Positions 2,705 to 63,087 of a DNA stretch of 64,000 nt are shown in pieces. The position numbers and the translations under genes were made by a program. Under the pieces are notes generated by a model. It was not told the DNA's origin and searched no databases. It saw only the letters and a program-made list of their open reading frames with translations. Each line of letters begins with the position of its first letter. The stretch's first letter is position 1. Origin of the DNA: Acidobacteriota bacterium (GTDB taxonomy: Bacteria > Acidobacteriota > Blastocatellia > Pyrinomonadales > Pyrinomonadaceae); the NCBI GenBank assembly GCA_032159825.1, contig JAVHWL010000011.1:84003-148002 (forward strand), given 5' to 3'.

Positions 2705-2762
2705 GGAACGATGAATGATGAATAAAAGACGCTTGCTTTTCGGCTCATCATTCATCGCTCGG
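2705..2762. repeat. Heptad-arm hairpin, GATGAAY family
   Basis: Arm gaacgatgaatgatga (2707-2722) pairs with tcatcattcatcgctc (2745-2760). It is paralogous to the hairpins at 33196 and 33749. The right arm encodes the last codons and stop of the chelatase N-half gene. Confidence 0.7.
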
Positions 2763-5016
2763 CGTTCATCGTTTCAAAGTTTGCCGCACGCGCCGTTTCT
2801 TCAATCGCACCAAACAACTGTTCGCGCTCATGCTCGGCGGTCGCCTGCCTGTAAGCGGTCAACAACTCTTTGAGCGAGGCAAGCTCTTTGTAGAGACCTG
2901 CGCTTTCAATCGGCGGGGTCAGATAGGAGATCAACTCGGCGTAAGACCTGCGCTTGGCGATAGAGCCTTCCGATGGATTGTTGACGCTGTAGATGTAGAT
3001 GTTCGGTAGCTCTCCGATCAAGCGATCCGGCCAGCACTCGCCGGACAACCCCACCTGCTTGCCCGGCATAAACTCCGTCGCGCCGTGTGTCCCGATATGC
3101 ACGACCGCATCTGCCCGGAAAACTTTTTCGAGGTAAGTATAAAGCGCCATGAACCCGTGATGCGGCGCGCCGCTTCGCGCCATCAGGAGTCTCATCGGAT
3201 CGCCCTCATAGCCGAAAGTTGGTTGCACTCCGAGAAAGATGTTTCCAAGCCGGATGCCCTGAATTAAAAGCTCTCCGCCGAAAGAATTGATGCTACCGGG
3301 CGCGCTGCCCCACTCTTCTTCAATCTCCTCGACAAAGGGACACAGCCGCCTGTACTCGTCAACGCTCATCCGGTAAGCGACGTTTGCAGTCGCGCCGAAA
3401 CTCTCTGAGTTTCCGCCAAGCAGTAGCTCTCGCAACTCATCCGCGCTTGCTGGAACTTCAACTTCATAGCCGTCGCGTTTCAAAGTCCGCAGCATCTCCC
3501 ATGCGCTTGGAAAGACATCAAGATCGGCAGCCGTGCCGATGTTGCCCTTGTTCGGCGGGAAACAGAAAACCAGCAACGCAAGGCGCACATCCACGCGCGC
3601 CGCTGTCTGCAAATGATTCCAACGCTTCAAGCGTCGCGCCAGCCGGTGACAGCGATCTTCCAGGGGCAAGGGTTCGCATTCGCCCGCGCGCAAGCCGCCG
3701 TAAACGAAAGGCTCCGTCGCTCCGTCCAACTCAGGGATGGCGATCTGCATTCCCGCCTGCACAGGATTCAATCCAATCCCTGACTCCTGCCACGACTCAA
3801 CCGTCTGCATATCCAGACTGACGGCTGAGCGAAACGGGCGATTCAACTCACGTAAGAATTTCGCAGCCGCCTCACTATCATTCATCGCAGGCCCGCCAAC
3901 GAAACTGAACCCCGTCAGCGACACCACCTGACTCACACGCGATTTTATTTCAGTCTCAAACTCCCCTTCCTTCTTACCGCCAACTGCCAACTGCCTACTG
4001 CCTATTTCCTTCCGCCCATCGCCTTCAATAAAAAACTTCCCGCATGCCTCGCGGTTGTCCATCAAGGTCGAGATAGCAGGCAGCACAGCAAGTCCTTCGG
4101 CTTCAATCGCACGAATCAGCCCGTCGTAATGTTTTCGCGTGTTGCTCACGATCTGCGGGCGCATCAACAGCAAGCCGATTGTCCTGGCCGGGTCAAGCGT
4201 CTGTTGACCGTTCTTATTGCTTCGACGCTCATACCATTTTCGATATGCAGCGAACGACTCAAAAAGCGTTGGCGCATCCGGGTGATAAATCGCTACCGCA
4301 GGCATCGTCTCCGGCGGCGGGACTTTAATCTCAGCCCGCGTCACACGTTCATCCGGCACATACTGCTGGATCGCATAGAGCACCATCGAGCGAATATTGG
4401 CGGGTGTCGGTTGCAGGAAATAACAGAAGAGATAAAGATAATTCTTGATGTCTCGCAAGCGTCCTGCGCCCGGAACGAAACGCAACAAGCCTGGCAAGCG
4501 ATCAACGAGCTTCAGATACTGTGTGTGATTCCGACTTTTCTTAGCGCGATGAGCACGCGCCTGCTCGCCCATCCACGCGCCAATCCTGCCAGCAAGATGA
4601 TGCGCTCGCTTCTCACCCTCCTGACCCTTTGCCTCGTCTACGCCTTCAAGCGTCTCCGCGCCATCGCTTTTCTTGCCGCCGAACATCCGCCCGAAGTCCA
4701 GCTTCCCCATCCGCGTCCGCCGCATCAGGTCTGGCATACAGTTGATAACAACCACCGCACGATGCCGCGCTTTGTATCGCTCCAGAGAATCCAGCAATCT
4801 CGTCGCATTCTCTCCATCCATCACGTGAATCACGAACACCACATCCGCCCCGCTCAAGTCCCCCTCAACATCCCGCCACTCACCCTCCGTTAACGCCGCG
4901 CCGAAGTTGTACGCCGCAACCCGCAGGTCGAGCGCATACTCACGATTGATCTCGCGCTCCGCCTGCTTGAGAGGAGCGAGAAGACTAGACCCGACATAGA
5001 GAATCGTAACGTTCAT
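2752..5016 (-). CDS. ChlH/BchH/CobN-type chelatase large subunit, N-terminal fragment (about two-thirds of the protein), intact ORF
   Basis: 754 aa. MPDLMRRTRMGKLDFG, FPPNKGNIGTAADLDVF, GVQPTFGYEGDPMRLL, VHIGTHGATEFMPGKQ and NPSEGSIAKRRSYAELISYLTPP match the conserved ChlH/CobN blocks. The ORF stops in the linker just before the LxPxGLHxxG block. Confidence 0.85.
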   Translation of the reverse strand: MNVTILYVGSSLLAPLKQAEREINREYALDLRVAAYNFGAALTEGEWRDVEGDLSGADVVFVIHVMDGENATRLLDSLERYKARHRAVVVINCMPDLMRRTRMGKLDFGRMFGGKKSDGAETLEGVDEAKGQEGEKRAHHLAGRIGAWMGEQARAHRAKKSRNHTQYLKLVDRLPGLLRFVPGAGRLRDIKNYLYLFCYFLQPTPANIRSMVLYAIQQYVPDERVTRAEIKVPPPETMPAVAIYHPDAPTLFESFAAYRKWYERRSNKNGQQTLDPARTIGLLLMRPQIVSNTRKHYDGLIRAIEAEGLAVLPAISTLMDNREACGKFFIEGDGRKEIGSRQLAVGGKKEGEFETEIKSRVSQVVSLTGFSFVGGPAMNDSEAAAKFLRELNRPFRSAVSLDMQTVESWQESGIGLNPVQAGMQIAIPELDGATEPFVYGGLRAGECEPLPLEDRCHRLARRLKRWNHLQTAARVDVRLALLVFCFPPNKGNIGTAADLDVFPSAWEMLRTLKRDGYEVEVPASADELRELLLGGNSESFGATANVAYRMSVDEYRRLCPFVEEIEEEWGSAPGSINSFGGELLIQGIRLGNIFLGVQPTFGYEGDPMRLLMARSGAPHHGFMALYTYLEKVFRADAVVHIGTHGATEFMPGKQVGLSGECWPDRLIGELPNIYIYSVNNPSEGSIAKRRSYAELISYLTPPIESAGLYKELASLKELLTAYRQATAEHEREQLFGAIEETARAANFETMNAER
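3975..4002. repeat. In-frame run of four tandem heptamers (GGCAGTW on the coding strand) inside the chelatase N-half CDS
   Basis: Plus strand reads taccgcc aactgcc aactgcc tactgcc and encodes ...IGSRQLAVGG.... The same heptamer family occurs at 61602-61622. Confidence 0.7.
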
Positions 5017-5030
5017 TCGGCTCGTTTCAA

Positions 5031-5813
5031 TTACGACTTGGCCGCTTCCTTTTTATTTGCCTTCGACATGAGAATTTCAATTGCCTGGAGGATACGCTTT
5101 GCGAGACCCTGCGCTTCTTCGTCATACCTTTCAGGTTCGACGGGTTTGACCTGAATTGCTTGCTCCATCTTACCCGGCAACTCAGAAAGGTTTATTTGAC
5201 TGCTCAAGAGGAGTGGAATAATCGGGATTTTTCTTTCGAGAGTAGCCGCCAGCTCACGCCTCATCCAGGTACTCATAGATTCTGAGATGATAAACACGGC
5301 AACATCCGCTTGGCTAAGTAACTGGCTGATAGAAACCTCCCAGGGCAGCCCGCTCGTTTCGTTCCCCATCAGCAGGACGCGAGCGTCATGCGCGGCCAAG
5401 GCCCTGCTCAAGGCATTCGCAAATGGCGCGTCCGCAATGTTGCAGGAAAAAAAGATAAACCGAGGCGAACTTCCGGCTCCCGCTCCGCCACCTGCGGCCT
5501 CCGATGTCTCATCATCTTGCTTATCTTCTTCGGCAGAGGATTTTAGTTCGAGCCAGCGCTTGAGGCTTCTTTTAGAGCCATCCTTGTGGACGACCTGAGC
5601 GCGAATCAGGAATTCGCCCCAGCCTTCGGAGTCCAAACGAAATTTCGAGCCTCGATCATCAACACGACGAACAGGCTGCGGAAACGAGGGGTGTAAAGTG
5701 TATTCAACATATTCGATTCGATCCAGGGCGTCACTGTCGCCTTCAATCCAGACAGACCATCTCCACCAGTTGTCTTGCTCAGAAGTCGCCTTCTGTTTGA
5801 TGCTGATCCTCAT
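5031..5813 (-). CDS. Prokaryotic YEATS-like (pYEATS) domain fused to a TIR domain
   Basis: 260 aa. Residues 15-78, WWRWSVWIEG...VEYTLHPSFPQPVRRV...FRLDSEGWGEFLIRAQV, match the YEATS signature (LHxSF..P.R, GWGEF.I). An acidic/Gly linker follows. Residues 117-205, RFIFFSCNIADAPFANALSRAL...ADVAVFIISESMSTWMRRELAATLERKIPIIPLLL, match the TIR_2-type pattern (FISY-like start, S.W...E, K.IIP). A strong RBS (aggagaagg) overlaps the upstream stop. Confidence 0.75.
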   Translation of the reverse strand: MRISIKQKATSEQDNWWRWSVWIEGDSDALDRIEYVEYTLHPSFPQPVRRVDDRGSKFRLDSEGWGEFLIRAQVVHKDGSKRSLKRWLELKSSAEEDKQDDETSEAAGGGAGAGSSPRFIFFSCNIADAPFANALSRALAAHDARVLLMGNETSGLPWEVSISQLLSQADVAVFIISESMSTWMRRELAATLERKIPIIPLLLSSQINLSELPGKMEQAIQVKPVEPERYDEEAQGLAKRILQAIEILMSKANKKEAAKS

Positions 5814-5823
5814 TTGCCTTCTC

Positions 5824-10573: not shown

Positions 10574-10698
10574 GGATTAACCACAGAGGCACGGAGGCAC
10601 AGAGAAGACAAATCACAGATTCAGAATTTGAAATCTCAAATCTGCTATCTATAATTTCCTATCTTCATGCTTCCTCGGTGTCTCTGTGGCTTGGTAAT
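10574..10698. repeat. Hairpin element, CACAGAG family
   Basis: Left arm ggattaaccacagaggcacggaggcacagagaag pairs with right arm cttcctcggtgtctctgtggcttggtaat. The loop carries the cagaatttgaaatctcaaatctg motif that is shared with the element at 28266. Confidence 0.7.
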
Positions 10699-15929: not shown

Positions 15930-16010
15930 AAATCTCTAACAGATGATTTCACAGGGTCCGCTTTAATTGGAGCAATTTCCAGTTGCGTGTGTGGAAAGTC
16001 GGAACTCACT

Positions 16011-16100
16011 ACCGCAGACACAGTGCCAGCATAGAGGGGGCACAGAGAAGTTAAAGCCTCTGTGCAATCTCTGTGTCCTCTGTGTCTCTGTGGTGAATTG
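16011..16100. repeat. Hairpin element, CACAGAG family
   Basis: Left arm accgcagacacagtgccagcatagagggggcacagagaag pairs with right arm cctctgtgcaatctctgtgtcctctgtgtctctgtggtgaattg. It is homologous, in inverted orientation, to 32119-32214. Confidence 0.75.
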
Positions 16101-21336: not shown

Positions 21337-23325
21337 ATGCTGAAGAATAATGTTCACAGAGTTTCGAGGGCAGTTGCGCTTTCACTGCTGCTCTGTAGCG
21401 CGTGTGTCTTTGTGACGGCGCAGACGCCATCTCCTACGCCGCCGCCCGCGAGTCCTACACAGCAAGACGCCACCAGGCCGCCGGGCGCTGAACGCAACCA
21501 GCCTATCCCCGAACAGGTGCGACCCGTCACGCCAGACCCGACTGCGCCTCCTGGGTCGCAGCGCCCTGCCCCGCAGGCTCCGCCCGGAACAAGCGTCACA
21601 CCGCAATCCGGCCCGCCCGCATCGCCCAACACACAGCCGATGCCGACCACAGATGCGCTGCCTCGTGGGACATCTGAGACAACGCTTCAGCCCGTGCCCG
21701 AATCAACGCCCGTCGCCGGACAAGAGGAGCCGCGCGAGCCGAATTACCCGACTGAAACGCCGCGCTCTGCTCCGCCCCTTCCGAGCCTGTCGCGGCTCGG
21801 AGTTTCGAGCGACGACACACTGACGCTGACGCTCAACGAAGCCATCCGTCGCGCGCTTGAGAACAACAACGACATAGAAGTTGCGCGCAACGATGTTCGC
21901 CTGGCGGAAACCACCTTAAAAGCGTTTCAGGGTGTTTATGATCCGACGCTCAACTTCAACCCTCAGCTTTCAAATCTTGTTCAGTCGCAGCAGAGCACGC
22001 TCGGCGGAGGCTCAGGTCAGGCGAACACGCTGACGACAACAGATTTCACCTTCGATAACAACGTCAACAAACTTTTCAGCGTCGGCGGAGGCTCATACCA
22101 GGTCTTCTTCAACAACCTGCGCCGCACGACCAACTCGCGCTTCAATCAAATCAGTCCGTCTTATTCATCGAATCTCGGCGTAACTTTCACGCAACCGCTC
22201 TGGCGCGACCGCTCGATTGACAACAACCGCCGCCAGATACGCATTCAACGCAAACGGCTCGAACAATCCGACGCTGACTTTCGACGCCGCACCATAGATG
22301 TCATCTCTCAAGTGCAGCGCGCCTACTGGGATTTGGTCTTCGCCCTACGCGATCAGCAAAACAAGGTTGCCAACCTGAACCTGACGCGCGAAAACCTGCG
22401 ACGTGTTGAAGCGCAGATTTCCGCCGGTGCGATTGCCCCGCTTGCGCGTGCGGAAGTGCAGACGGAGCTTTCCAACCGCGAGTCAGACTTGCTGGTCACA
22501 ACGCAGAGCGTCTCGATAGCGGAAAACTTGCTCAAGCAGTTAATCCTGCGCGATTCGCAATCACGCGAGTGGTCTTCGCAACTGACGCCGACCGACGCGC
22601 CAACTTTTGATGCGACGCCCATCAATCTCAACGACGCGCTCGCAGAAGCGCGCTCTAACCGTCCAGAACTGCGTCGCCTGAATCTGGGCCGCGACATCAA
22701 CGACATTGACTTACAATATTTCAAGAACCAGACACGACCGCGCATAGACCTTCAATCAACTTTTGCTACAACCGGGGTGGCTGGCACACCCATCATCACA
22801 ACTGACCCGCTAACGGGGCAGGTGATTCCGAACACAGTCCCCACCAGTCTGATCGGCGGCTACGGGCGCGACCTGAGTAACTTATTCAAATTCGGCACGC
22901 GCAACGTAGTGGCCGGAGTCGCCATCCAGATTCCGCTTCGCAACCGGACGGCGGAAGCGAATCTCACAGGCGCACGCATTCAGCGGACTCAACTTGAAGC
23001 TACGACGCGCTCACAGGAACAGATGATCGAAGTCGAAGTACGCAACGCGGCGCAGTCGGTCGAGACAGCCAGGCGGCGCGTTCTCGCCGCACGCTCGGCG
23101 CGCGAAAACGCAGAGCTTCAACTCACAGGCGAGCAGCGTCTCTATCAGGTCGGACGCTCAACCACGTTTCTGCTCTTCCAGCGTGAGAACCAACTTGCCA
23201 ATGCTCGCAACCTGGAACTGCGCGCCGAGACCGACTACAACAAAGCTCTGGCAGACCTACAGCGCGCAACCTCCACCACACTGCGCGCCAACAACATCAT
23301 TGTCGAAACCCCGACTGTGCCGTAG
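21337..23325 (+). CDS. TolC-family outer-membrane efflux protein with a Pro-rich N-terminal extension
   Basis: Has a signal peptide and a roughly 140-aa P/T/Q-rich tract. Two TolC-type repeats follow (LTLNEAIRRALENNNDIEVAR..., LQRATSTTL). Confidence 0.8.
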   Translation: MLKNNVHRVSRAVALSLLLCSACVFVTAQTPSPTPPPASPTQQDATRPPGAERNQPIPEQVRPVTPDPTAPPGSQRPAPQAPPGTSVTPQSGPPASPNTQPMPTTDALPRGTSETTLQPVPESTPVAGQEEPREPNYPTETPRSAPPLPSLSRLGVSSDDTLTLTLNEAIRRALENNNDIEVARNDVRLAETTLKAFQGVYDPTLNFNPQLSNLVQSQQSTLGGGSGQANTLTTTDFTFDNNVNKLFSVGGGSYQVFFNNLRRTTNSRFNQISPSYSSNLGVTFTQPLWRDRSIDNNRRQIRIQRKRLEQSDADFRRRTIDVISQVQRAYWDLVFALRDQQNKVANLNLTRENLRRVEAQISAGAIAPLARAEVQTELSNRESDLLVTTQSVSIAENLLKQLILRDSQSREWSSQLTPTDAPTFDATPINLNDALAEARSNRPELRRLNLGRDINDIDLQYFKNQTRPRIDLQSTFATTGVAGTPIITTDPLTGQVIPNTVPTSLIGGYGRDLSNLFKFGTRNVVAGVAIQIPLRNRTAEANLTGARIQRTQLEATTRSQEQMIEVEVRNAAQSVETARRRVLAARSARENAELQLTGEQRLYQVGRSTTFLLFQRENQLANARNLELRAETDYNKALADLQRATSTTLRANNIIVETPTVP

Positions 23326-23328
23326 AAA

Positions 23329-23430
23329 AGTCTGGAGTCTGGAGTCTGGAGTCGAGAGTCAAAGGCTAAAAACAGATTGCTTTTGACATCGGACGCGCTC
23401 TTGACGTACCAGACTCCAGACTCCAGACTC
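23329..23430. repeat. Heptad-arm hairpin, TCTGGAG family
   Basis: Left arm agtctggagtctggagtctggagtc pairs with right arm accagactccagactccagactc. An inner stem pairs gtcaaagg with cttttgac. Confidence 0.8.
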
Positions 23431-23433
23431 TTT

Positions 23434-24201
23434 TTGAAGATTACAGCCACCATCATCACCTTCAACGAAGCGGACAACATTCGCGCCGCATGCGAATCCG
23501 TTCATTGGGCGAATGAGATTCTTGTCGTGGATTCGGAGTCAACCGATGAGACGCGAGAGATTGCTGAAGGGTGCGGGGCGAGAGTCATCAATCGTGTGTG
23601 GCCCGGCTTCACCGCGCAGAAACAGTTCGCGGCAGATGAAGCGAAGCATGATTGGGTTTTCAGTCTGGATGCTGACGAGCGCGTCTCGGATGAGTTGCGC
23701 CACTCAATCGAAGATTTGCTCTATACCAGCGAGGATCGCTTGGCCGACGGCTATCGCCTCTCGCGCCGCTCTTTCTACATGGAACGCTGGATTCGCGGCG
23801 GCGGATGGTATCCAGATCACCAGCTACGTCTCTATAAGAAAGCGCGCGGACGCTGGCAGGGAGCGTATATACACGAGTCCGTGAAGATGGATGAGGGTAC
23901 ACGCATTGAAACTCTGAAGGGCGACATCCTGCACTACACAGGGCGCGACGCCGCTTATCATCACCGCATGATCGGCGAACGCTACGCCCCGCTCGCCGCG
24001 CGCCAGATGTTCGAGAGCGGCCAACGCACCTCCCTTCCACGCATCATGACCGCAGGGCCAGCCGCCTTCCTCCGCAGCTACATTCTCAAGGGCGGCTTCC
24101 GCGACCGTTTCCCCGGCTACGTCATCGCACGCTTCGCAGCCCACCATGCTTTTCTAAAACATTTGATGCTCTGGGAAATGCAGAAGAACAGTGACGAGTG
24201 A
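23434..24201 (+). CDS. Family-2 glycosyltransferase
   Basis: Contains KITATIITFNEADNI, ILVVDSESTDETREIA and LDADE. I prefer the TTG start at 23434, just after the hairpin arm. The ORF-track start at 23377 reads through the repeat. The last codons (NSDE) lie in the next hairpin. Confidence 0.75.
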   Translation: MKITATIITFNEADNIRAACESVHWANEILVVDSESTDETREIAEGCGARVINRVWPGFTAQKQFAADEAKHDWVFSLDADERVSDELRHSIEDLLYTSEDRLADGYRLSRRSFYMERWIRGGGWYPDHQLRLYKKARGRWQGAYIHESVKMDEGTRIETLKGDILHYTGRDAAYHHRMIGERYAPLAARQMFESGQRTSLPRIMTAGPAAFLRSYILKGGFRDRFPGYVIARFAAHHAFLKHLMLWEMQKNSDE

Positions 24202-24257
24202 CGAGTGACGAGTTAAAAACTTCTTTGCTTGTCGCTCGTCACTTGTCACTCGTCACT
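24190..24257. repeat. Heptad-arm hairpin, GTGACGA family, between convergent genes
   Basis: Left arm agtgacgagtgacgagtgacgag pairs with right arm cttgtcgctcgtcacttgtcactcgtcact. It contains both flanking stop codons. Confidence 0.8.
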
Positions 24258-28257: not shown

Positions 28258-28265
28258 TGGCAAGG

Positions 28266-28599
28266 CAGATTAAACGCAGAGGACGCGGAGGGTCGCAGAG
28301 GGAAGAAGGGATTTGAAATTCAGAAGCTAAGAAGTTGTTTGAACATTCTCTGAAAGCCCCGAAGGGGCGCAATGTAATAGCCTGTGGCAACGCCACAGGA
28401 ACCGACGTTGCGTTATTTCATTAAGCCCTGAAAGGGCGACATAAGCATGTCCACCCAGGGCGTTGCCCTGGGCTATTACATGTCGCCCCTTTGGGGCTTT
28501 CATGGACTTTTCAATCAGCCTTCTCAGATTTGAGATTGCTCTGCTGCCTTCCTTCTCTCTTCCCTCTGCGTCCTCCGCGTCCTCTGTGGTGAACTGCTC
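28266..28599. repeat. Composite CACAGAG-family hairpin whose loop hosts the nested-palindrome element
   Basis: Left arm cagattaaacgcagaggacgcggagggtcgcagagggaagaagg pairs with right arm ccttccttctctcttccctctgcgtcctccgcgtcctctgtggtgaactgctc. The inner gatttgaaattcagaa and tcagatttgagatt motifs are split by the insert. Confidence 0.75.
28352..28501. repeat. MITE-like nested-palindrome element, copy B (shorter)
   Basis: Termini gaaagccccgaaggggcgcaatgtaatagcc and ggctattacatgtcgcccctttggggctttc. It shares tgtggcaacgccaca, agccctgaaagggcga and cccagggcgttgccctgg modules with copy A. Confidence 0.8.
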
Positions 28600-30464: not shown

Positions 30465-30510
30465 GAGCAGTTCACCACAGAGACACAGAGGACACAGAGG
30501 GGGCACAGAG
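30465..30510. repeat. CACAGAG-family arm, left inverted repeat flanking the GxxExxY gene
   Basis: Sequence is gagcagttcaccacagagacacagaggacacagagggggcacagag. Its reverse-complement partner is at 30893-30936, with about 3 mismatches in 44 nt. Confidence 0.8.
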
Positions 30511-30948
30511 TTAGAGGATTTTACGGCGGATGCCTTGCTTGAGGACGGCGACGTTGAAGTTGATGAGGAGGCCGACGTGCCAGCCGCCGAGTCTGAGATA
30601 GGTTAGAAGCTGAGCTTCGTGGATAGGCGCGAGGGCTTCGACCGATTTGACTTCGACGACTACCGAACCGGCAACAAGCAGATCGAGCCTGTAGCCACAT
30701 TCCAAGCGAATCCCCTTGTACTCCAACGGCAGCGGCTTCTCACGCTCAAAAGCCACGCCGCGCACGCTCAACTCACGACACAAACACTCACAATATGCAG
30801 ACTCCAACAATCTCGGCCCAAGTGTTCTATGAATCTCAATCGCCGCCCCAATAATCGCTTCAGTAACCTTGTTGATTTGAGGAATCAACTTTCTGTGCCC
30901 CCTCTGCGCTCTCTGTGTCTCTGTGGTGAACTGCTCTTTATCCAACAC
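30511..30948 (-). CDS. GxxExxY-family protein (PD-(D/E)XK nuclease superfamily)
   Basis: Contains [53 protein letters not shown] and GLLINFN. The first 20 or so codons ([18 protein letters not shown]) are encoded by the right repeat arm, so the true start is uncertain. Confidence 0.8.
30893..30936. repeat. CACAGAG-family arm, right inverted repeat flanking the GxxExxY gene
   Basis: Sequence is ctgtgccccctctgcgctctctgtgtctctgtggtgaactgctc. Confidence 0.8.
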
Positions 30949-32040: not shown

Positions 32041-32118
32041 CGCCTACTCCTTCATCTCAATTATGATGTGGGAAGTATAGCATTAGAGTGATGTTCAGTT
32101 GTGTGTAGGGTGAGAAAT

Positions 32119-32214
32119 ATTCGCCACAGAGACACAGAGGACACAGAGGGGACACAGAGAAGCTAAAGCCTCTGTGCGTCCTCTATGCTGGCACTGTGTC
32201 TCTGTGGTGAATTG
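32119..32214. repeat. Hairpin element, CACAGAG family
   Basis: Left arm attcgccacagagacacagaggacacagaggggacacagagaag pairs with right arm cctctgtgcgtcctctatgctggcactgtgtctctgtggtgaattg. Confidence 0.75.
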
Positions 32215-33279: not shown

Positions 33280-33346
33280 CGTTGACCTGGCAAAGATAAT
33301 CAAAGGGCGGTTGAGTGTCAACCGCGAGGCAGATCACGGTTCACGC

Positions 33347-33748: not shown

Positions 33749-33835
33749 GGAACGATGAACGCGGAATGATGAATGATGAATTAAAGAAAGACCATTGCTT
33801 TTCAGTTCATCATTCATCATTCCGCGTTCATCGTT
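33749..33835. repeat. Heptad-arm hairpin, GATGAAY family
   Basis: Left arm ggaacgatgaacgcggaatgatgaatgatgaa pairs with right arm ttcatcattcatcattccgcgttcatcgttt. Confidence 0.8.
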
Positions 33836-39452: not shown

Positions 39453-39524
39453 AGTGACAAGTGACAAGTGACGAGTGACAAGCAAGAATTCTATCTCGTC
39501 ACTCGTCACTTGTCACTTGTCACT
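39453..39524. repeat. Heptad-arm hairpin, GTGACRA family
   Basis: Left arm agtgacaagtgacaagtgacgagtgacaag pairs with right arm ctcgtcactcgtcacttgtcacttgtcact. Confidence 0.8.
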
Positions 39525-41619: not shown

Positions 41620-41685
41620 GTTCGTGAATCGTGAATAGATGAACCCGTTCGACGATTTACGATTCACGATTCACGATTCACGAAC
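41620..41685. repeat. Heptad-arm hairpin, CGTGAAT family
   Basis: Left arm gttcgtgaatcgtgaatag pairs with right arm cgatttacgattcacgattcacgattcacgaac. It contains the kdsB stop codon. Confidence 0.75.
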
Positions 41686-42510: not shown

Positions 42511-42617
42511 GTCAAAAGAAAACGAGTGGATCGAAAATCGTGAATCGTGAATCGTGAACAGAGGAAACCGGTTTCCTCTATTCACGATTCACGATTCACG
42601 ACCTATTTGCTTTTGAC
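42511..42617. repeat. Long near-loopless palindrome, CGTGAAT family, in the divergent kdsB/cysK-like intergenic region
   Basis: Reads gtcaaaag...aatcgtgaatcgtgaatcgtgaacagaggaaacc | ggtttcctctattcacgattcacgattcacgacc...cttttgac. Confidence 0.8.
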
Positions 42618-43714: not shown

Positions 43715-44854
43715 ATGGGATTCTCAACAACAGCCGTACATGGAGGACAGGAGGCCGACCCGACGACTGGCTCGGTCACTGTTCCGATTTATCAAACGTC
43801 AACCTACGAGCAGGATGGACTCGGAAAGCACAAGGGTTATGAGTACGCGCGAACGCAGAACCCGACCAGGGCTGCGCTTGAGCGCAACATCGCCGCACTC
43901 GAAGGCGCACGCTTCGGCTATGCTTTCGCTTCCGGGATGGCTGCCATTGATGCCACGCTCAGGCTCATCAAGGCGGGCGAGCATGTCATCGTCTCGGATA
44001 ACACCTACGGCGGCACGTTTCGTCTCTTCACGCGCATCCTGGCGAATTACAATATCGAGTTCGACTTTGTAGACACTTCGGACATCACCAATGTCGAGGC
44101 GGCGATTAAAGAGAACACGAAAATGGTCTTTCTCGAAACGCCCACCAACCCCGTGATGATCGTCACAGACCTTCAGGCCGTCTCGGATTTAGCGCACGCG
44201 GCGGGCGCTCGCGTGGTTTGCGACAACACTTTCATGTCGCCTTACCTGCAACGCCCGCTCGAATTTGGTGTTGACATTGTGGTGCATTCCACGACTAAAT
44301 ACTTGAACGGGCATTCGGACGGGATAGGCGGCATCGTTGTTCTGAACGATGAAGAGGATGCCAACTGGATTGGTTTCGTGCAAAATAGCGTCGGCGCGAT
44401 TCTGTCGCCGTTCGATTCATGGCTGGTGCTGCGCGGCACAAAGACGCTGGCGCTGAGGATGGAGCAGCACGACCGCTCCGGGCGCGCGGTGGCGGCATTT
44501 CTAGAAGAGCACCCGAAAGTGCAGAAGATTTATTATCCGGGGTCGCTTTCGCATCGCCAGCACGATCTGGCAAAGCGCCAGCAAAAAGGTTTCGGCGGGA
44601 TGGTGGCTTTTGATGTTGGCTCGCTTGAGGCTGCGCGCACCGTGCTAGAATCTGTTAAGCTATGCACACTCGCTGAGAGCCTGGGCGGTGTGGAAACATT
44701 GATCTCGCACCCGGCCACGATGACGCACGCTTCCGTGCTTGAGGAAACACGCACGCGGCTCGGCATCACAGACGGCCTCGTGCGTATCTCGGTCGGGATC
44801 GAAGATACAGACGATATTATTGCGGACTTGGATCAAGCGCTGAAAAAAGTTTAG
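43715..44854 (+). CDS. Cystathionine gamma-lyase / gamma-synthase family PLP enzyme
   Basis: Contains TGSVTVPIYQTSTY, HSTTKYLNGHSD (PLP lysine) and ESLGGVETLISHPA. Confidence 0.9.
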   Translation: MGFSTTAVHGGQEADPTTGSVTVPIYQTSTYEQDGLGKHKGYEYARTQNPTRAALERNIAALEGARFGYAFASGMAAIDATLRLIKAGEHVIVSDNTYGGTFRLFTRILANYNIEFDFVDTSDITNVEAAIKENTKMVFLETPTNPVMIVTDLQAVSDLAHAAGARVVCDNTFMSPYLQRPLEFGVDIVVHSTTKYLNGHSDGIGGIVVLNDEEDANWIGFVQNSVGAILSPFDSWLVLRGTKTLALRMEQHDRSGRAVAAFLEEHPKVQKIYYPGSLSHRQHDLAKRQQKGFGGMVAFDVGSLEAARTVLESVKLCTLAESLGGVETLISHPATMTHASVLEETRTRLGITDGLVRISVGIEDTDDIIADLDQALKKV

Positions 44855-44932
44855 TGATAAGTGATAGGTGATAAGTGATAAGTAAAAGCTTTTCACCCAT
44901 CACCTATCACTTATCACTTATCACTTATCACT
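44853..44932. repeat. Heptad-arm hairpin, GTGATAA family
   Basis: Left arm agtgataagtgataggtgataagtgataagtaaaag pairs with right arm cttttcacccatcacctatcacttatcacttatcacttatcact. It is a close paralogue of 59158-59233. Confidence 0.8.
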
Positions 44933-46256: not shown

Positions 46257-47051
46257 ATGCTTCGACGATTAGTAAAATCAAAATCAATACTGCTGGCGAC
46301 TTGCTGCCTGGCCGTAACCCTCCTGGCAATTCCCGTCACCACACGCACCAGCAAAGCCGACGACCTGTCGGGTCGTGAGCTACTGAGCGTGACCAGAGTC
46401 GCGCAGGGCGGCGCTGAATACACAGGGCTTCAATATGTGACAGTGCGCGCCGAAGGCTTCGTCAACGCGGCTGCCTTCGCCGGAATCGGGGCCAATCCCC
46501 TCGGCGCAGCGGTCGAGGTCAAACTTAACGTGACGGATTACCAGGACAAGTCCATGCGCCGCAGGTTGGACGTTGCGCCGGGCGGCGGGCTGCTCGCCGT
46601 AGGGCCGACCTACCTTGTCTACACAGGCACGGAAGGTGGCGGGATGTTCGCTGGCAACCAGATTCGCGTGAGCGAGGTTGCCGCCTCTCGCCATTGGGCC
46701 ATGATGGGCTTCGACACACTCAATCGCGCCATCGAAGGCCAGCTTCAAACTGCGCGCCAGAAAGATGAAGGCAACGATTACGTTGTTGAAGTCAAGTTCA
46801 CCCCTGCGGACACCATTCGCTACTGGATTAACAAAAGCTCTTTCCTGATAGACAAAATCACCACCCGCTACAATAGCCAGGTGATGATCGAGGAAGACAG
46901 GAGCGACTACCGCAAGGTAAGCTGCATGACGCTACCCTTCCATGTAGTGACTAAACTGAAGGGTCAGCGTCTAGCAGACCTTTCGATTAATAACTACGAC
47001 CTGCAAACGGTCGTCCCCGCCGCACGCTTTTCGATGACGGCAATGCCGTAG
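46257..47051 (+). CDS. Hypothetical secreted protein
   Basis: ATG at 46257, 12 nt after a gaggag RBS. Signal-like LLATCCLAVTLLAIPV. The body is beta-rich and matches no motif I recognise. Confidence 0.5.
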   Translation: MLRRLVKSKSILLATCCLAVTLLAIPVTTRTSKADDLSGRELLSVTRVAQGGAEYTGLQYVTVRAEGFVNAAAFAGIGANPLGAAVEVKLNVTDYQDKSMRRRLDVAPGGGLLAVGPTYLVYTGTEGGGMFAGNQIRVSEVAASRHWAMMGFDTLNRAIEGQLQTARQKDEGNDYVVEVKFTPADTIRYWINKSSFLIDKITTRYNSQVMIEEDRSDYRKVSCMTLPFHVVTKLKGQRLADLSINNYDLQTVVPAARFSMTAMP

Positions 47052-47131
47052 TAATGCAAAATTAAAAATGTAAAATGCAAAAGTGAGGAAGAAGGGCGAA
47101 CCTTTCATCCTCACTTTTGCATTTTTATTAC
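47051..47131. repeat. Heptad-arm hairpin, AAATGCA family
   Basis: Left arm gtaatgcaaaattaaaaatgtaaaatgcaaaagtgaggaagaagg pairs with right arm cctttcatcctcacttttgcatttttattac. Confidence 0.75.
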
Positions 47132-47161
47132 GGTTTACAGATGAATGCGACCCGTTTAGAG

Positions 47162-49482: not shown

Positions 49483-49550
49483 GTGATGAGTAATAGGTGA
49501 TGGGTGATAAGAGAAAACACGCTCTTTCTTATCACCTATCACCTATTACT
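49483..49550. repeat. Heptad-arm hairpin, GTGATRA family
   Basis: Left arm gtgatgagtaataggtgatgggtgataagagaaa pairs with right arm ctttcttatcacctatcacctattact. It contains the acyl-CoA dehydrogenase stop codon. Confidence 0.75.
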
Positions 49551-54959: not shown

Positions 54960-55769
54960 ATGGCGCTTTCAACCGAAAAACTTCTAGCGGGGCGCACAAT
55001 CGTCATCACGCGCGCTCGCGCGCAGGCTGCGGAGTTTGCCACAGAGCTTGAGCAATTGGGCGCGCGTGTCATCAGTTGCCCGACGATTGAGATTGTCGAG
55101 CCTGAGAGCTACGCGCTGCTCGATGAAGCAATCGAAAATCTGTTTGGCTACGACTGGCTCATCTTCACGAGCGTCAACGGTGTTGACTATTTTCTACGCC
55201 GCTTTGAAAAGCTCGGCCACGATGTCTCCGAGCTAGACGAGTTGCGTGTCTGCGCCATCGGCGAGGCGACCGCTGTCCGCTTGCGTGAAGCGCGCATCCA
55301 CGTTGATGTTGTCCCGGAGCAGTTCAAAGCTGAAGGCGCATACGCTGCGATTGAATCTTATCTCGGCGGGAGCGATGGTCTAAACCGCCTGGTCTTTCTT
55401 ATCCCGCGCGCGGCTATCGCACGCGACTATCTCCCGAACGCACTCGTAGAAGCGGGCGCGCGGGCGGATGTCGTACCTGCCTACCGCACCGTCCGCCCAA
55501 ACACGTCCGAGCGCGGGCGCGTCGAAGCCATGCTCACCGGCGGCGCAGTTGATTGCATCACCTTCACCAGCTCCTCGACGGTCATCAACTTCGCTCAACT
55601 TTTCGACACCACCGACTTGAGCAAACTACTTGCAGGCGTACACGTCGCCTGCATCGGCGACATCACCGCTGCCACAGCCGCCGAGTATGGTCTGCACACT
55701 GACATCCAGCCAAACGAATACACCATCCCCGCGCTGACCCGTGCAATCGCCTCTTATTACTCAAAATAG
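54960..55769 (+). CDS. hemD: Uroporphyrinogen-III synthase
   Basis: Contains LAGRTIVITRA and WLIFTSVNGV. It sits after hemA. Confidence 0.8.
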   Translation: MALSTEKLLAGRTIVITRARAQAAEFATELEQLGARVISCPTIEIVEPESYALLDEAIENLFGYDWLIFTSVNGVDYFLRRFEKLGHDVSELDELRVCAIGEATAVRLREARIHVDVVPEQFKAEGAYAAIESYLGGSDGLNRLVFLIPRAAIARDYLPNALVEAGARADVVPAYRTVRPNTSERGRVEAMLTGGAVDCITFTSSSTVINFAQLFDTTDLSKLLAGVHVACIGDITAATAAEYGLHTDIQPNEYTIPALTRAIASYYSK

Positions 55770-55863
55770 ATTAACCGCAGAGGACGCAGAGGACACAGAG
55801 GGTCGAAGAGATTGAATCATTCTTATCTTCCCTCTGCGTCCTCTGTGTCCTCTGTGGTTAATC
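55769..55863. repeat. Hairpin element, CACAGAG family
   Basis: Left arm gattaaccgcagaggacgcagaggacacagagggtcgaagagatt pairs with right arm aatcattcttatcttccctctgcgtcctctgtgtcctctgtggttaatc. Confidence 0.8.
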
Positions 55864-55911
55864 TTGCTCGCTCACGCCTTCAAGCTCAAGGTCTGTGCTA
55901 AACTTCCAATC

Positions 55912-57348: not shown

Positions 57349-59177
57349 AAGGCGGCAGCGCACTACTACGTCGCCAAATCACACTCATCACGCTTCTCGT
57401 CGCAACCGTCGCGTTCGTCCTCATCGTCGCTAACATTGCTCAACTGACACGCTCACTCGTTGTGGCACTGCGCGATCAGGCTGAAAGTGTCTCGCTGCAA
57501 GCGGCCACTGCCGCAGAGGGCGCGCTCATTGCCGCGCCGAACGATCAACCGCAGCGGGCCATCCGCGAATCACAAACAGCACGAGCATACGCAGAGGCAG
57601 TCGTTCGTCGCGGCGCACCGATTACATCGCTCGTTGTCGAAGACCAATCGGGCGCGCCCCTCTTGCAAGTTCCAGAAACAGCAGCCGACCGGCATCTTCC
57701 CGCGCTCGAAACTCTGGCGAACGCATCCGTCTTCTCCCGCCTTCGACAAATCCTTTCAGGCGGCGAGACACAGTATGAATACTCCCGCGCGCTCGTCTAT
57801 CACGGGCAGGAGTTCGGGCGCGTGCGGCTCAGCGTTTCGCTCGCGTCTGTCCGCAAAGAGGTCTGGCAAAGCCTGCTCACCAATCTGCTGCTCGCCTTGG
57901 CCGCCATCGCAGCCGCAACGTTCATAGCCATTAGCTCCGCGCGGTTGATTACAGCCCCCCTGCGCGCCATCGCGTCATCCATCGCTCAACTCGAATATGT
58001 TGAGAGCGGAGCTTCAGCCGGGGCGAAAGTTGAGAAGACCGGAAGGGCCGACATTGAAACCGTCACCGGCAGACTCGAACAATTGAGCCGCCAGATAGCT
58101 GGCAACCGTTCTGAGTTGCGAGAGACGCGTGGCGGGCTGCAACAAATTCTTCAGAATCTTCAGGAGAGGTTGCTGCTCGTCAGCGCAGACGGGCGCGTCA
58201 TGCTGGCAAGTCCCGGCGTTGACCAGCTACTCGGCTCCGAGCACGCAATGGAAGGACGCAATCTAGCGGAGATTGTCGGAGCTAATCATCCCCTTGTTGC
58301 GCTCACACAGGGCGCGCTCGCGTCTCATGAAACTTCGTCGCGTATCATGCTTCCGGCAACGAACGGCAACTCCACTCGCCCCGTAGTCGCTTCCGTTCAA
58401 CCCGTCAAAGATCGCGGCGAGATAGTCGGCGCGCTCGTCTCTCTGCACGACAAAGAGACGGTCGCAAGACTTGAATCGCAGCTTGATTACTCCGGGCGGC
58501 TGGCGGATTTCGCGCGCATCACTTCCGGCATCGCCCACGAAGTCAAGAATCCTTTGAACGCGATGGTCATCCACCTTGAGCTTCTTCGCTCGAAGCTGCA
58601 AAAAATCTCACCCGCTGCTGACGATGCGCGCCCGCAGATTGAGATACTGACTTCAGAGATTCAACGCCTCGACCGCGTTGTCCAAACTTTTCTTGACTTC
58701 ACACGACCGCCGCGCATTAACCTGCGCCCGCTCGACGTGAATCAAGTCCTGGAAGAGACGCTCGCGCTCGCCGCCCCTGAAGCCGAGCTTCGCGGCTCAA
58801 CCGTCTGGCGCTCATTCGAGCCTGACCTGCCGAGGATCGCAGGCGATGCCGATCTGCTTAAGCAAGCCTTCCTCAACATCATCATCAACGGCTTTCAAGC
58901 GATGGAGCAGGGTGGTCGCCTTCTAGTCTCAACATCTCAGGACAACGAAACCGACGTGCTTATCTCCATCAAAGATCACGGCACAGGAATCGAGCCTGAA
59001 GCCCGCGAGCGTATCTTTCATCTTTATTACACCACCAAGCCAGACGGCAACGGCATCGGTCTCGCCCAGGCGTTCCGCGCCGTCCAACTCCACAACGGTC
59101 AGATCACCTTCGACAGTCAACCAGGACTCGGCGCAATTTTTTACATCAGGCTGAAAGCAGTGATGAGTGATAAGTGA
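57345..59177 (+). CDS. Sensor histidine kinase (NtrB-like, TM/HAMP/PAS/HisKA/HATPase)
   Basis: The start overlaps the ntrC-like stop (ATGA). H-box [15 protein letters not shown]-box [11 protein letters not shown]-boxes DHGTGI and GNGIGL. The last four codons (MSDK) are in the hairpin arm. Confidence 0.85.
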
Positions 59178-59233
59178 TAGGTGATAAGTAAAAGCTTTAA
59201 TCTTATCACCTATCACTTATCACTCATCACTTG
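59158..59233. repeat. Heptad-arm hairpin, GTGATAA family
   Basis: Left arm cagtgatgagtgataagtgataggtgataagtaaaag pairs with right arm cttatcacctatcacttatcactcatcacttg. Confidence 0.8.
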
Positions 59234-59269
59234 TCTTCCGTCACTCATAAATGTTATTCATCGCGGCAC

Positions 59270-60169: not shown

Positions 60170-61610
60170 CTCCCCGGCTTCAAATCAACAAACACCGGCA
60201 GAACGCTCAACGCACAAAGATTCCGCGCCGCGCCGCCAGCCAAACGACAGGCGCGAGATTTTCGGCTGGGTGATGTATGACTGGGCTAACTCCGCTTTTA
60301 GCACAACGGTGGCGACAACCTTGCTCGGAGTTTACCTGACGGGGCTGGCGCAAAGCATACTTGGCGAAAACGGCACTTTCATCAGCTTCGGGATACTAGG
60401 CAGCGTAACGGCAAAATCGTTCTTCCCTTTCTGTGTCATGGTGTCCGTCATCTTGCAGGCGCTGCTTCTGCCTGTGCTCGGCGCTATCGCAGATTATTCA
60501 AACTTGAAGAAACGTTTGATGGCTTTGTTCTGCTACACAGGCGTGGCTGCCACCTGCCTGCTCTTCTTCATCACAGGCAGCTTGTACTCGATAGGTGGTC
60601 TGATCTTTATCATCGCCAATCTTTGCTTCGGCGCTTCCATTGTCTTCTACAACTCGTTCCTTCCCGAAATCACGACCGAAGACAGGCGCGATAAAGTTTC
60701 GAGTCGCGGATTTGCGCTCGGCTATCTGGGCGGCGGATTACTATTGGCTCTGAATCTTGTGCTGGTGGTCTGGGCACAGAGCAAACATAATTCTGCCACC
60801 GTCAGTCTTGCAGTTCGCATCTCGCTTCTCTCTGCCGGACTCTGGTGGGGCGGATTCTCTATCCTGACTTTTACCAGGCTGAAGGAGCGCGGCACGTCTC
60901 GTCGTCTCCCGCCGGGCAAGAATTATTTGAGCATCGGCTTCTCTGAAACCATCAAGACCTTCCGCGAGCTTCGCCGCCTGCGCCACACTCTCAAATACCT
61001 GCTCGGCTACCTGCTTTTTAATGACGGTATACAGACTGTCATCGTCATGTCTGGAGTATTTCTTGAGCAGGAGCTTTTCATCTCGCGGGGACTGGAGCCT
61101 AATCGCTCCTTCCTGCTCGGCTTAATCCTGGTCGTGCAGTTCGCAGCCTTCGTCGGAGCTTTACTGTTCGAGCGAATCGCTAAAGCTGCGGGCACGAAAA
61201 ACGCTATTCTGCTATCGCTCGTGCTCTGGTCTGGAATTGTGATTTACGCTTACGGGTTTCTTGAAACGGTCACGCAGGCGTGGTTCATGGGCGTAGCAAT
61301 TGCGATTGTGCTCGGCGGCTCTCAGGCTCTCTCGCGCTCTCTGTTCTCACGTATGATTCCGGCGGGGCGCGAGGCGTCGTTCTTCGGCATCTACGAAATC
61401 TCAGAGCGCGGCACATCCTGGATTGGGCCGCTCGTCTTCGGCATCGTTGTCGGCGCGACGAACTCTTACCGGCAGGCGATTCTCTCTTTGATTGTCTTCT
61501 TCATCGGGGGGATGGTGATTCTATTTTTTACGGATACAGACAGAGCTGTTCACGAGGCAGGAAATGTTTTGCCGGAAGAAGTTGAAGAAAAGTTGGGAGG
61601 GGGCAGTTAG
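60162..61610 (+). CDS. MFS transporter, UMF1/Atg22-like
   Basis: Contains FGWVMYDWANSAFSTTV and 12 predicted TM segments. It overlaps the upstream gene by 8 nt. Confidence 0.8.
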   Translation: MNDSPASNQQTPAERSTHKDSAPRRQPNDRREIFGWVMYDWANSAFSTTVATTLLGVYLTGLAQSILGENGTFISFGILGSVTAKSFFPFCVMVSVILQALLLPVLGAIADYSNLKKRLMALFCYTGVAATCLLFFITGSLYSIGGLIFIIANLCFGASIVFYNSFLPEITTEDRRDKVSSRGFALGYLGGGLLLALNLVLVVWAQSKHNSATVSLAVRISLLSAGLWWGGFSILTFTRLKERGTSRRLPPGKNYLSIGFSETIKTFRELRRLRHTLKYLLGYLLFNDGIQTVIVMSGVFLEQELFISRGLEPNRSFLLGLILVVQFAAFVGALLFERIAKAAGTKNAILLSLVLWSGIVIYAYGFLETVTQAWFMGVAIAIVLGGSQALSRSLFSRMIPAGREASFFGIYEISERGTSWIGPLVFGIVVGATNSYRQAILSLIVFFIGGMVILFFTDTDRAVHEAGNVLPEEVEEKLGGGS

Positions 61611-61622
61611 CAGTTGGCAGTT
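61602..61622. repeat. Orphan single arm of three heptamers (GGCAGTT family) overlapping the MFS stop codon
   Basis: Reads ggcagtt agcagtt ggcagtt. No inverted partner is seen nearby. Confidence 0.6.
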
Positions 61623-62391: not shown

Positions 62392-62467
62392 CTCCTAGTG
62401 CCTTTCCGTTGAAGTCTGAGGTGGAAAATCTAGCATGCTCTTTGTGAGTCAAAAACTGTCTTGCAAT

Positions 62468-62952
62468 TTGAGAGCAGGTCTGTAAGCCGAATTCTGTTCT
62501 CCGGTTTCCCGGAGCGGCGATCATTCATCTAGCCCAACCGTCGCCGGTTGGATCGAGCGACCTACCCGGAGGTCGTAGCATGTTTTTGAAAAAACACGCT
62601 TCGGGCGGGCAGCCCTTGTTGACGCCTCCCTATTTGGTCTTGCACTGCGAGGAGTTTGCCTGGCCGACGATGTTACCACCGACGCCGGTGCGCTCTTACT
62701 TTAAGCCCACAAGGGGCCGCACCGTTTCATCCATCACCCGCAACCATCACGCCTCGAAAAGCGCAATAGCCCGCTGGCTGGTCTATTTTCTGTTGCACTT
62801 GTCGTCATCAGGTAAGACGATCAGCAACTTAATGCCAGCCGTTTCTCGCCCGATGCCCAGCCGTTAGCTGGCTCGCTGCCCTGTAGTGTTCGGACTTTCC
62901 TCTCCTTCAACCCCGAAAGGTTTGAAGCAGCGACCGCCCGACCTGCTCTCTT
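62468..62952 (-). ncRNA. rnpB: RNase P RNA, bacterial type A
   Basis: The minus strand reads gagagcaggtcgggcggtcgc...GAGGAAAGTCCGaacacTACAGGGCAG...GTGCAACAGAAAA...GGTAACA...ACAGAATTCGGCTTACAGACCTGCTCTC. The P1 ends pair. Ends are approximate. Confidence 0.88.
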
Positions 62953-63000
62953 GCAAGGCTCCGGGATTATAGCAAACCAATGTTGAACACGTACAGCACA

Positions 63001-63087
63001 AAAATTAACCGCAGATAAACACAGATAGACACGGGTAGAGCATTCCATCTAATCTGCGTGTATCTGCGTTCATCTGCGGTTGATTTT
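63001..63087. repeat. Hairpin element, CACAGAG-related variant (CGCAGATAAACACAGATAG)
   Basis: Left arm aaaattaaccgcagataaacacagatagacacg pairs with right arm cgtgtatctgcgttcatctgcggttgatttt. Confidence 0.7.

Follow-up and report, generated by a model that had tools for sequence, protein, structure and literature searches.

What are the long hairpins that stand between the genes of an uncultured soil acidobacterium, and why are their arms built of tandem heptamers? The question is raised by a 64,000-nucleotide stretch of the 188,552-bp contig JAVHWL010000011.1 (positions 84,003 to 148,002, hereafter the window), in which a sequence-only reading had noticed numerous inverted repeats with arms made of tandem 7-mers and had likened them to the STRRs (short tandemly repeated repetitive elements) of cyanobacteria. 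The origin, the 7-nt period and the function of heptamer repeats are long-standing questions. Here, a second, unrelated phylum displays the same heptad architecture at a higher density and with hundreds of sequenced relatives, which opens the heptamer-repeat question to comparative analysis. The heptad hairpins are a lineage-wide feature of Pyrinomonadaceae genomes, and their architecture and placement at gene 3' ends are maintained across this bacterial family while the sequence turns over. With moderate confidence, we interpret them as STRR-like hairpins that are maintained by slippage, homogenised between the arms and act as generic RNA hairpins at gene boundaries, with a further set of hairpins, the CACAGAG family, being separate.

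The long inverted repeats with tandem 7-mer arms are present in the window and far exceed chance. A uniform ungapped scan (stem of at least 16, at least 80% paired, loop of at most 70) detects 22 hairpins, 15 of them with period-7 arms, whereas thirty dinucleotide-preserving shuffles of the window yield a mean of 0.7 hairpins (maximum 3) and none with period 7. When gapped and split cases are included, the total comes to 23 hairpins of 62-117 nt, two of which are split by inserts. The sequence-only reading had counted about 25 hairpins with heptad arms; the 23 hairpins are real, but only 16 are heptad-based, and the other 7, of the CACAGAG type, have units of 8-11 nt. The listed elements are recovered by a repeat finder and by Tandem Repeats Finder, which assigns period 7 to 16 of the window hairpins, and RNA folding of 12 representatives gives energies of -37 to -72 kcal/mol (z = -8.6 to -13.8). 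The heptamer families, at least six in the window, had been listed correctly, including the loop common to the copies at 44853 and 59158, and every array but one lies outside coding sequence. Two further assignments fail. The GGCAGTT pair at 3975 and 61602, taken for hairpins, consists of single arrays without an inverted partner, the one at 3975 being within a CobN-like coding region, and the CACAGAG family, taken to be heptad-based, has the longer units just mentioned and includes the two members that are split by inserts.

The claim that the hairpins occupy nearly every gene boundary is too strong: 23 of 60 boundaries are occupied and, among the 41 spacers that measure 50 nt or more, about half. 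The elements are not confined to the window, given that the additional 12.6 kb of the contig hold 4 more heptad hairpins and many occur in relatives. An assembly artefact is ruled out because the same architecture recurs in dozens of independent metagenome-assembled genomes (MAGs), in contigs of up to 2 Mb and in one complete-chromosome record.

The host is, as supposed, not a cyanobacterium. Phosphoglycerate kinase (PGK) places the contig in the Acidobacteriota, family Pyrinomonadaceae, with the top matches, all from uncultured MAGs, at 90-91% PGK identity; four Rfam Acido-Lenti-1 matches in the window are consistent with this placement. Because the host is a Pyrinomonadaceae acidobacterium, we call the elements STRR-like, that is, elements of the same kind in a new phylum. 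For comparison, 80 related loci (L006-L085) were retrieved from GTDB species representatives on the basis of PGK, and gene coordinates are the Joint Genome Institute (JGI) gene calls for the contig (JGI metagenome 3300044734). Heptad hairpins thin out with phylogenetic distance: per 10 kb, the contig has 2.5, close relatives have 1.3, distant relatives 0.4 and unrelated soil contigs 0.1.

The anatomy of the heptad hairpins was derived from the pooled contig and 80 related loci (1.17 Mb), which contain 254 hairpins, 118 with period-7 arms. The ungapped stems have a median length of 26 bp (interquartile range 23-31 bp, equivalent to 3.3-4.4 unit copies per arm) and the loops a median of 28 nt. 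Period 7 is dominant, with 209 arrays of at least three copies, compared to 26, 22, 7 and 6 arrays for periods 5, 6, 8 and 9, respectively, and 141 of the 209 have an inverted partner at most 170 nt away. The stems of the period-7 hairpins are about 92% paired. For 192 of 308 unit variants in the 5' arm, the position opposite carries the matching variant, whereas the proportion is 10-21% when the register is displaced by one or two units; this difference is somewhat inflated by the choice of the register with the best pairing. The units themselves are diverse, with 64 distinct heptamers among the 118 hairpins. Their rotational alignment yields an information content of 3.26 bits, compared to 2.82 +/- 0.12 in the null model, a weak shared pattern, so that a single recognition motif common to all heptamers is rejected as a strong constraint.

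The two arms differ in composition. On either strand, the 5' arm has more G than C in 98 hairpins and less in 13, with an overall composition of A 0.31, C 0.11, G 0.31 and T 0.27. Being G-rich and C-poor, the first arm is rich in stop codons, which occur in all three frames in 40 of the 118 hairpins, in at least two frames in 68 and not at all in 35; the G-poor second arm is free of stop codons in 76 of the 118. A stop-rich first arm followed by a G-poor, largely start-codon-free second arm beside the downstream ATG, whichever the orientation, would suit translational insulation, a fit that is not universal. Stop codons in all three frames can account for the period of 7 only in part at best: among the 35 hairpins with a stop-free 5' arm, 22 still have more G than C, 9 are reversed and 4 are tied, and periods of 4, 5 and 8 would serve equally.

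The strict 7-nt period might alternatively point to a protein. Under this scenario, the arms would be arrays of sites for a single-strand-binding protein with a 7-nt footprint, for example, one with a cold-shock domain, which on binding would melt or lock the hairpin and thereby regulate read-through or translation. A paper on heptamer arrays discusses a report that the cold-shock protein CspB takes up one heptanucleotide per domain, with weak sequence specificity (PMC4679880), and GTCTTTG-type units are found in some relatives. However, the unit sequences are extremely diverse and the arms are paired, so that the sites would be occluded, and we regard this explanation as highly improbable.

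How the hairpins evolve can be followed at orthologous sites. The synteny around the gap-pgk-tpi genes and around the efflux and GT2 genes is conserved in relatives, and therefore three orthologous spacers are comparable. Of the 42 close relatives (PGK identity of at least 76%) whose gap-pgk spacer is extractable, 31 carry a period-7 hairpin (stem of at least 14, arm periodicity of at least 0.64), and 4 more contain a weakly periodic period-7 stem. Starting at the stop codon, the hairpin reaches to within 0-6 nt of the ATG in these relatives and is built of about 20 different heptamers, such as GTGACGA, GTGATAG, GTGGTCA, GTTTTCA, GTGAGCA, AATGGTG, GCCGATT and GGTCTTT. Between the efflux and GT2 genes, the closest relatives carry evidently homologous hairpins in which the unit has changed in every copy of both arms (AGTCTGG, AGTCAGG or the 9-mer GAGTCTAGC), and more distant relatives have a canonical terminator, consisting of an A-tract, a GC-rich stem and a T-tract, instead of the heptad hairpin. 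Between pgk and tpi, a heptad hairpin fits precisely between stop codon and ATG in about 60% of the relatives; in several of the others, these two codons adjoin or are separated by a few nucleotides, or the genes almost touch. Across orthologous sites, unit identity falls to near background by 85-90% PGK identity. The three spacers thus show that position and architecture are conserved or recurrent, that sequence is not, and that terminator-type and operon-internal junctions are both tolerated.

Within a genome, the units are more alike. The same unit, allowing at most one mismatch, recurs at a rate of 19-23% within a genome and of 6.4% between genomes, a difference of about 3-fold; paralogous copies agree in the irregular order of their units and in their loops, as illustrated by the four GATGAAY copies of the window, which align through the loops; and an identical 32-nt arm occurs at two sites of one related locus, L010. 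Taken together, these observations imply some copying between sites. They also form the case for mobile elements of the REP/REPIN type, REP denoting repetitive extragenic palindromic sequences, or of the miniature inverted-repeat type, which a dedicated enzyme acting in trans, either a Y1 transposase of the RAYT type or a nuclease specific for structure, would disperse, a case to which the CACAGAG family adds a nuclease gene in or beside the hairpin at 62 of 66 loci (see below). Against mobility, the heptad hairpins combine 64 heptamers with only a weak common pattern, lack a conserved head of the GTAG/CGTC type, show no evident target-site duplications in the aligned paralogous copies, persist at orthologous sites across genomes and were not seen to enclose a gene: a search for arms 0.2-2.5 kb apart returned only adjacent hairpins of the same family. 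Moreover, no Y1 or other transposase is called among the Pfam-annotated genes in 76 kb of the contig. The suggestion of the sequence-only reading that the elements are REP-like targets of a RAYT-type enzyme is hence not supported for the heptad hairpins, and a REP/RAYT-like arrangement with a different enzyme, the GxxExxY nuclease, fits the CACAGAG family; as an account of the heptad hairpins, mobility appears unlikely.

The placement of the hairpins is precise. Measured from the stop codon's end, the first stem base is most often at -1 to +5 nt; the last one mostly precedes the next start codon by 0-20 nt. Among 108 hairpins with a classified context, 82 are co-directional, 16 convergent and 10 divergent, such that 98 face at least one gene 3' end. 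About nine window hairpins fill spacers of 70-110 nt between co-directional genes and stop 3-7 nt short of an ATG, those of pgk and of the genes for cystathionine lyase, PP2C, a protein kinase and proline dehydrogenase among them. The observation that hairpins separate co-directional genes inside operons, as in gap/pgk and in the cysK-like/cystathionine lyase/PP2C series, is thus borne out, as is that of a single hairpin in a divergent promoter region (42525..42611). The hairpins said to follow tRNAs and RNase P RNA fare less well, in that only the one at 16006 lies 3' of a tRNA, and those at 33195 and 63001 are located 5' of tRNA-Gly and of RNase P RNA, respectively.

Could the hairpins simply be the Rho-independent terminators of this lineage, each ensuring an efficient stop? 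They begin at stop codons, replace a canonical terminator at the efflux-GT2 junction and, in the case of the hairpin at 23323-23436, are followed by TTTTT. Canonical terminators are rare here, too: in the 40 kb between 16000 and 55999, terminator-like sites are not more common than in shuffled sequence, and the sole convincing combinations of a GC-rich stem with a T-run are at 16194-16219 and 32267-32293. However, most of the hairpins lack a U-tract, as had been noticed from the sequence, and the nine or so in short co-directional spacers abut the next start codon without leaving room for a promoter. Nor would a promoter be embedded in the hairpins themselves, with a GTGACA arm serving as its -35 element and the AT-rich loop providing the -10 element; sigma-70-like matches inside the hairpins number 8, compared to 14.9 +/- 3.5 in shuffles, and this candidate is rejected. 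The pgk-tpi hairpin is inserted at a junction where the stop and start codons of several relatives are adjacent or a few nucleotides apart. Efficient termination at every site is therefore very unlikely. Of the roles considered by the sequence-only reading, that of a terminator is unlikely in an obligatory form, because many hairpins are inside operons, directly against the next start codon.

A weak Shine-Dalgarno-like sequence precedes only about a third of the genes in the window. Shine-Dalgarno use being rare genome-wide, its absence before hairpin-flanked genes is not specific to them. A TGCGA(A/C)AAT box is conserved about 10 nt ahead of the GT2 start codon in distant relatives, and the combination of this box with the scarcity of Shine-Dalgarno sequences hints at leaderless mRNAs, or mRNAs with very short leaders, in this lineage.

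Bacterial RNase III accepts perfect RNA duplexes longer than 20 bp as substrates, and 3' stem-loops block exonucleases; RNase III sites lie between the cistrons of phage T7, and REP elements are found within operons of E. coli. These properties of long stems underlie the role that we favour, that of 3'-end or processing hairpins, and among the candidate roles listed earlier, a predicted 3'-end stabiliser or processing site fits best. Once transcribed, the hairpins would fold into stems of 23-31 bp (the interquartile range) at the gene 3' end, where they could act as barriers to 3' exonucleases, RNase III substrates and partial pause or termination sites. They would thereby uncouple the stabilities of neighbouring cistrons and, where a T-run follows, as at 23323-23436, allow partial termination. 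The heptad hairpins most likely take the place that belongs to canonical terminators and REP sequences elsewhere among bacteria.

As for their origin, unit-wise replication slippage would create the arrays and turn them over; as each arm has only 3-5 units, a variant unit can soon become fixed when slippage adds and removes whole units. Templated correction of quasi-palindromes is established in E. coli, and the complementarity of the arms could be kept either by such correction of one arm from the other or by selection for pairing. Now and then, whole arms would be copied between sites. As regards variation in copy number among strains, exact-protein look-ups retrieved the source contig alone for one protein and no record for a second.

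Several observations weigh against this interpretation, and most of them favour another, namely, that the hairpins are functionless mutational 'weeds', self-renewing, slippage-prone palindromes that are tolerated outside coding sequences and promoters. The pgk-tpi hairpin is dispensable, given that about 40% of the relatives lack it, several of these with the stop and start codons adjacent or a few nucleotides apart. Mismatches in the stems of the period-7 hairpins show no significant excess of G.U over A.C on the sense strand (61 vs 52); they give no direct indication that the sense RNA is under selection and leave room for an explanation that is neutral or acts purely at the DNA level. Terminator-type, operon-internal and sometimes divergent junctions carry hairpins alike, the divergent spacers accounting for about 9% of the total, and unit sequences turn over rapidly. 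Because unit identity decays so fast, descent in situ and replacement by copying are not cleanly separable. Furthermore, our model leaves the exact period of 7 and the strong polarity of the arms (98 vs 13) unexplained. Counting against neutral weeds are a gap-pgk hairpin that is retained in 31 of 42 close relatives, and stems that stay about 92% paired, despite complete replacement of the sequence, hairpin edges that halt just before start codons, and the scarcity of canonical terminators together with the presence of a hairpin where relatives have a terminator. We consider a complete lack of function to be fairly unlikely and retain the interpretation of the heptad hairpins as generic gene-boundary RNA hairpins.

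Known in cyanobacteria since 1990, heptamer repeats show statistical over-representation across many bacteria. The cyanobacterial STRRs, usually 7-bp repeats, can fold into intergenic hairpins, for example between hupS and hupL; their function is unknown, and effects on transcript stability or translational coupling have been proposed (PMC2670836). A paper cited in PMC4692102 is quoted there as tentatively tying the over-representation of heptamer repeats to polymerase slippage. The likeness between STRRs and the acidobacterial elements, correctly perceived by the sequence-only reading, extends to the 7-nt tandem units with period 7 dominant, several unrelated heptamer families per genome, the intergenic location and the inverted arrays between co-transcribed genes. 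In 150 kb of plasmid pNPUN01 of Nostoc punctiforme, three hairpins share this architecture; the 5' arm is G-rich in two of them and shows no G/C bias in the third. The differences are that the host here belongs to the Acidobacteriota rather than to heterocyst-forming cyanobacteria, that the hairpin form is the rule (141 of 209 arrays with an inverted partner), that the density is about ten times that of the sampled Nostoc plasmid, and that retention of position with unit turnover and substitution for a terminator are demonstrated; we found no such description for STRRs. Our literature search found no report of heptamer repeats in Acidobacteria.

Two other groups of repeats invite comparison. 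The REP elements of proteobacteria are defined by a conserved GTAG or CGTC head and have been proposed to play mRNA-stabilising and termination roles (PMC3733652). REP, BIME and REPIN sequences resemble the heptad hairpins in being extragenic palindromes of similar size that are found at gene ends and in operon interiors and form genome-specific families. In REP elements, however, a sequence without tandem periodicity is conserved, whereas here the units are diverse, with no head common to the 64 units of 118 hairpins, and the strict 7-nt period is conserved. Intergenic heptamer arrays that vary in length among close relatives and keep the same gene neighbours are found in Xanthomonas (GGGAATC) and in Beggiatoaceae and cyanobacteria (TAACTGA), and some of the Xanthomonas arrays are also inverted pairs (PMC4692102, PMC4679880). 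These systems employ one dominant heptamer in each genome, mostly in direct arrays 5' of start codons, in contrast to the many heptamers per genome described here, arranged as hairpins that begin at stop codons. Rho-independent terminators share the position after stop codons and, in distant relatives, occupy the orthologous efflux-GT2 site, but the heptad hairpins have stems of 23-31 bp that are not GC-rich, are built of repeats, usually lack a U-tract and are often operon-internal.

The CACAGAG hairpins are a separate, more conserved family that is tied to GxxExxY genes and occurs in gene-containing and gene-less forms. In the window, one split member encloses such a gene (30511..30888, minus strand). 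Its product belongs to the GxxExxY family (TIGR04256 / PF13366, PDDEXK_3; E = 2.8e-41; 140 bits, the cut-off being 35) and has an intact PD-(D/E)XK catalytic motif, which makes it a predicted nuclease: the G..E..Y signature and residues D69, E79 and K81 of the D...ExK motif are invariant in 23 relatives. A sequence search found no solved structure for GxxExxY. The association was assessed in 80 metagenome loci (L086-L165) encoding relatives with 66-83% identity, of which 66 were evaluable and some are orthologous, hence not independent. The gene lies between split RCNGAG-type arms at 29 of the 66 loci and just downstream of a complete hairpin at 18, and at 62 loci, at least one arm is within 200 nt of the gene, compared to 3 of 246 background stretches of 400 nt. 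A large nuclease family whose function is unknown thereby gains an initial genomic context, and, by analogy, the arrangement resembles that of REP elements and RAYTs, with another class of enzyme.

The co-location of the gene and the hairpins is the basis of a bolder scenario, a self-propagating DNA system of a new type. A structure-specific GxxExxY nuclease, encoded in the loop of some CACAGAG copies, would cut hairpin or cruciform DNA, the ensuing repair would copy or homogenise the hairpins, the cis component of the system, and the host would have adopted all of them, those of the heptad type included, as universal gene-boundary punctuation in place of canonical terminators. The partnership would be like that of REP elements and RAYTs, with the nuclease substituting for the Y1 transposase. 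If this were the case, a shared mechanism would explain the same heptad architecture in two distant phyla. We rate this scenario as improbable. The coordinates of both kinds of hairpins are given in Table 1.

Table 1. Hairpins, solo heptad arrays and the GxxExxY gene of the window.
Feature	Coordinates	Strand	Context
Heptad hairpin, GATGAAY	2691..2775	.	Overlaps stop codon of CobN-like N-terminal gene (minus strand)
Solo heptad array	3975..4004	+	In CobN-like coding region; not a hairpin
CACAGAG-type hairpin, 8-nt units	10581..10689	.	3' of SDR gene
CACAGAG-type hairpin	16006..16096	.	About 190 nt 3' of tRNA-Leu
Heptad hairpin, GTGACGA/GTGACAA	19552..19624	.	Spans gap-pgk spacer, from gap stop codon to 3 nt before pgk ATG
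Heptad hairpin, AGTCTGG	23323..23436	.	Between outer-membrane efflux gene and GT2 gene; followed by TTTTT
Heptad hairpin, GTGACGA	24190..24257	.	Convergent genes; overlaps both stop codons
Split CGCAGAGG hairpin, CACAGAG family	28264..28598	.	Loop contains a palindrome of about 190 nt with two inverted Acido-Lenti-1 motifs (28355-28399, 28454-28498)
Split CACAGAG hairpin	30465..30940	.	Arms 30465-30510 and 30893-30940; encloses GxxExxY gene
GxxExxY / PDDEXK_3 nuclease gene	30511..30888	-	In hairpin loop
CACAGAG-type hairpin	32108..32224	.	
Heptad hairpin, GATGAAY	33185..33290	.	3' of response-regulator gene; adjoins 5' end of tRNA-Gly
Heptad hairpin, GATGAAY	33750..33836	.	Between kdsC and response-regulator gene
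Heptad hairpin, GTGACAA/GTGACGA	39453..39524	.	Spacer between pyrG and protein kinase gene; ends 6 nt before ATG
Heptad hairpin, AAATGCA/AAATGAA	41242..41347	.	
Heptad hairpin, CGTGAAT	41620..41685	.	Overlaps kdsB stop codon; arms of 2.1 and 4.6 unit copies
Heptad hairpin, CGTGAAT	42525..42611	.	Divergent (promoter) spacer, sole such case in the window
Heptad hairpin, GTGATAA	43633..43708	.	Spacer between cysK-like and cystathionine-lyase genes; ends 6 nt before ATG
Heptad hairpin, GTGATAA/GTGATAG	44847..44932	.	Spacer between cystathionine-lyase and PP2C genes; ends 4 nt before ATG; several pairing registers
Hairpin with AAATGCA heptads	47045..47134	.	Convergent genes
Heptad hairpin, GTGATGA/GTGATAA	48745..48829	.	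Ends 5 nt before proline dehydrogenase ATG
Heptad hairpin, GTGATRG	49489..49550	.	Overlaps acyl-CoA dehydrogenase stop codon
CGCAGAGGA hairpin, 9-nt unit	55768..55864	.	TTAACC termini; begins at hemD stop codon
Heptad hairpin, GTGATRA	59153..59238	.	Arms 30/30 paired; overlaps histidine-kinase stop codon
Solo GCAGTTA heptad array	61603..61622	+	Over MFS stop codon; no inverted partner, not a hairpin
CGCAGATA-type hairpin, 10-nt unit	63001..63087	.	TTAACC termini; between Rce1-like gene and 5' end of RNase P RNA

The hairpins also matter for annotation. They can stand where relatives have terminators, with the G-rich arm first on either strand; gene callers let open reading frames (ORFs) run on into the arms or place spurious ones on the inserts, and predictors of operons and terminators will fail in such genomes if they follow rules derived from E. 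coli.

The Acido-Lenti-1 matches of the window form two inverted pairs (26538-26720 and 28355-28498), each a palindrome of about 190 nt; the first pair is bare, and the second is in the loop of the CGCAGAGG hairpin. Acido-Lenti-1 behaves here as a dispersed palindromic repeat rather than as a single small-RNA gene, and the JGI-called ORFs 26567-26809 and 28327-28611 that overlie it are probably spurious.

STRR-like insertions have been reported in cyanobacterial RNase P RNA. The RNase P RNA of the window (62467-62949) is 483 nt long, compared to a 367-position model, and shows several helix expansions in the form of inserts of 41, 24, 24 and 21 nt; it contains no heptad array, and an insertion of the STRR-like type is rejected.

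Between pgk and tpi, the contig has a gene with a weak AbiEii-like match (17721-18356), separated from its neighbours by spacers of 0 and 8 nt. This gene is missing from all 80 relatives, in which the pgk-tpi junction is taken up by a heptad hairpin or by an unrelated insert, or else is only a few nucleotides long. The CobN-like magnesium-chelatase gene is represented by two ORFs, N-terminal (2752-5016) and C-terminal (6633-8387), and between them lie a YEATS-TIR gene and a TIR-domain gene (5031-6504), a pair with the appearance of a defence-type cassette that was inserted within a chelatase gene or between two of them. Finally, a hypothetical gene at 32320-32886 contains a 33/66-nt tandem repeat at 32358-32511 (4.4 and 2.3 copies, respectively, with 72-73% matches), so that its protein is probably repetitive.

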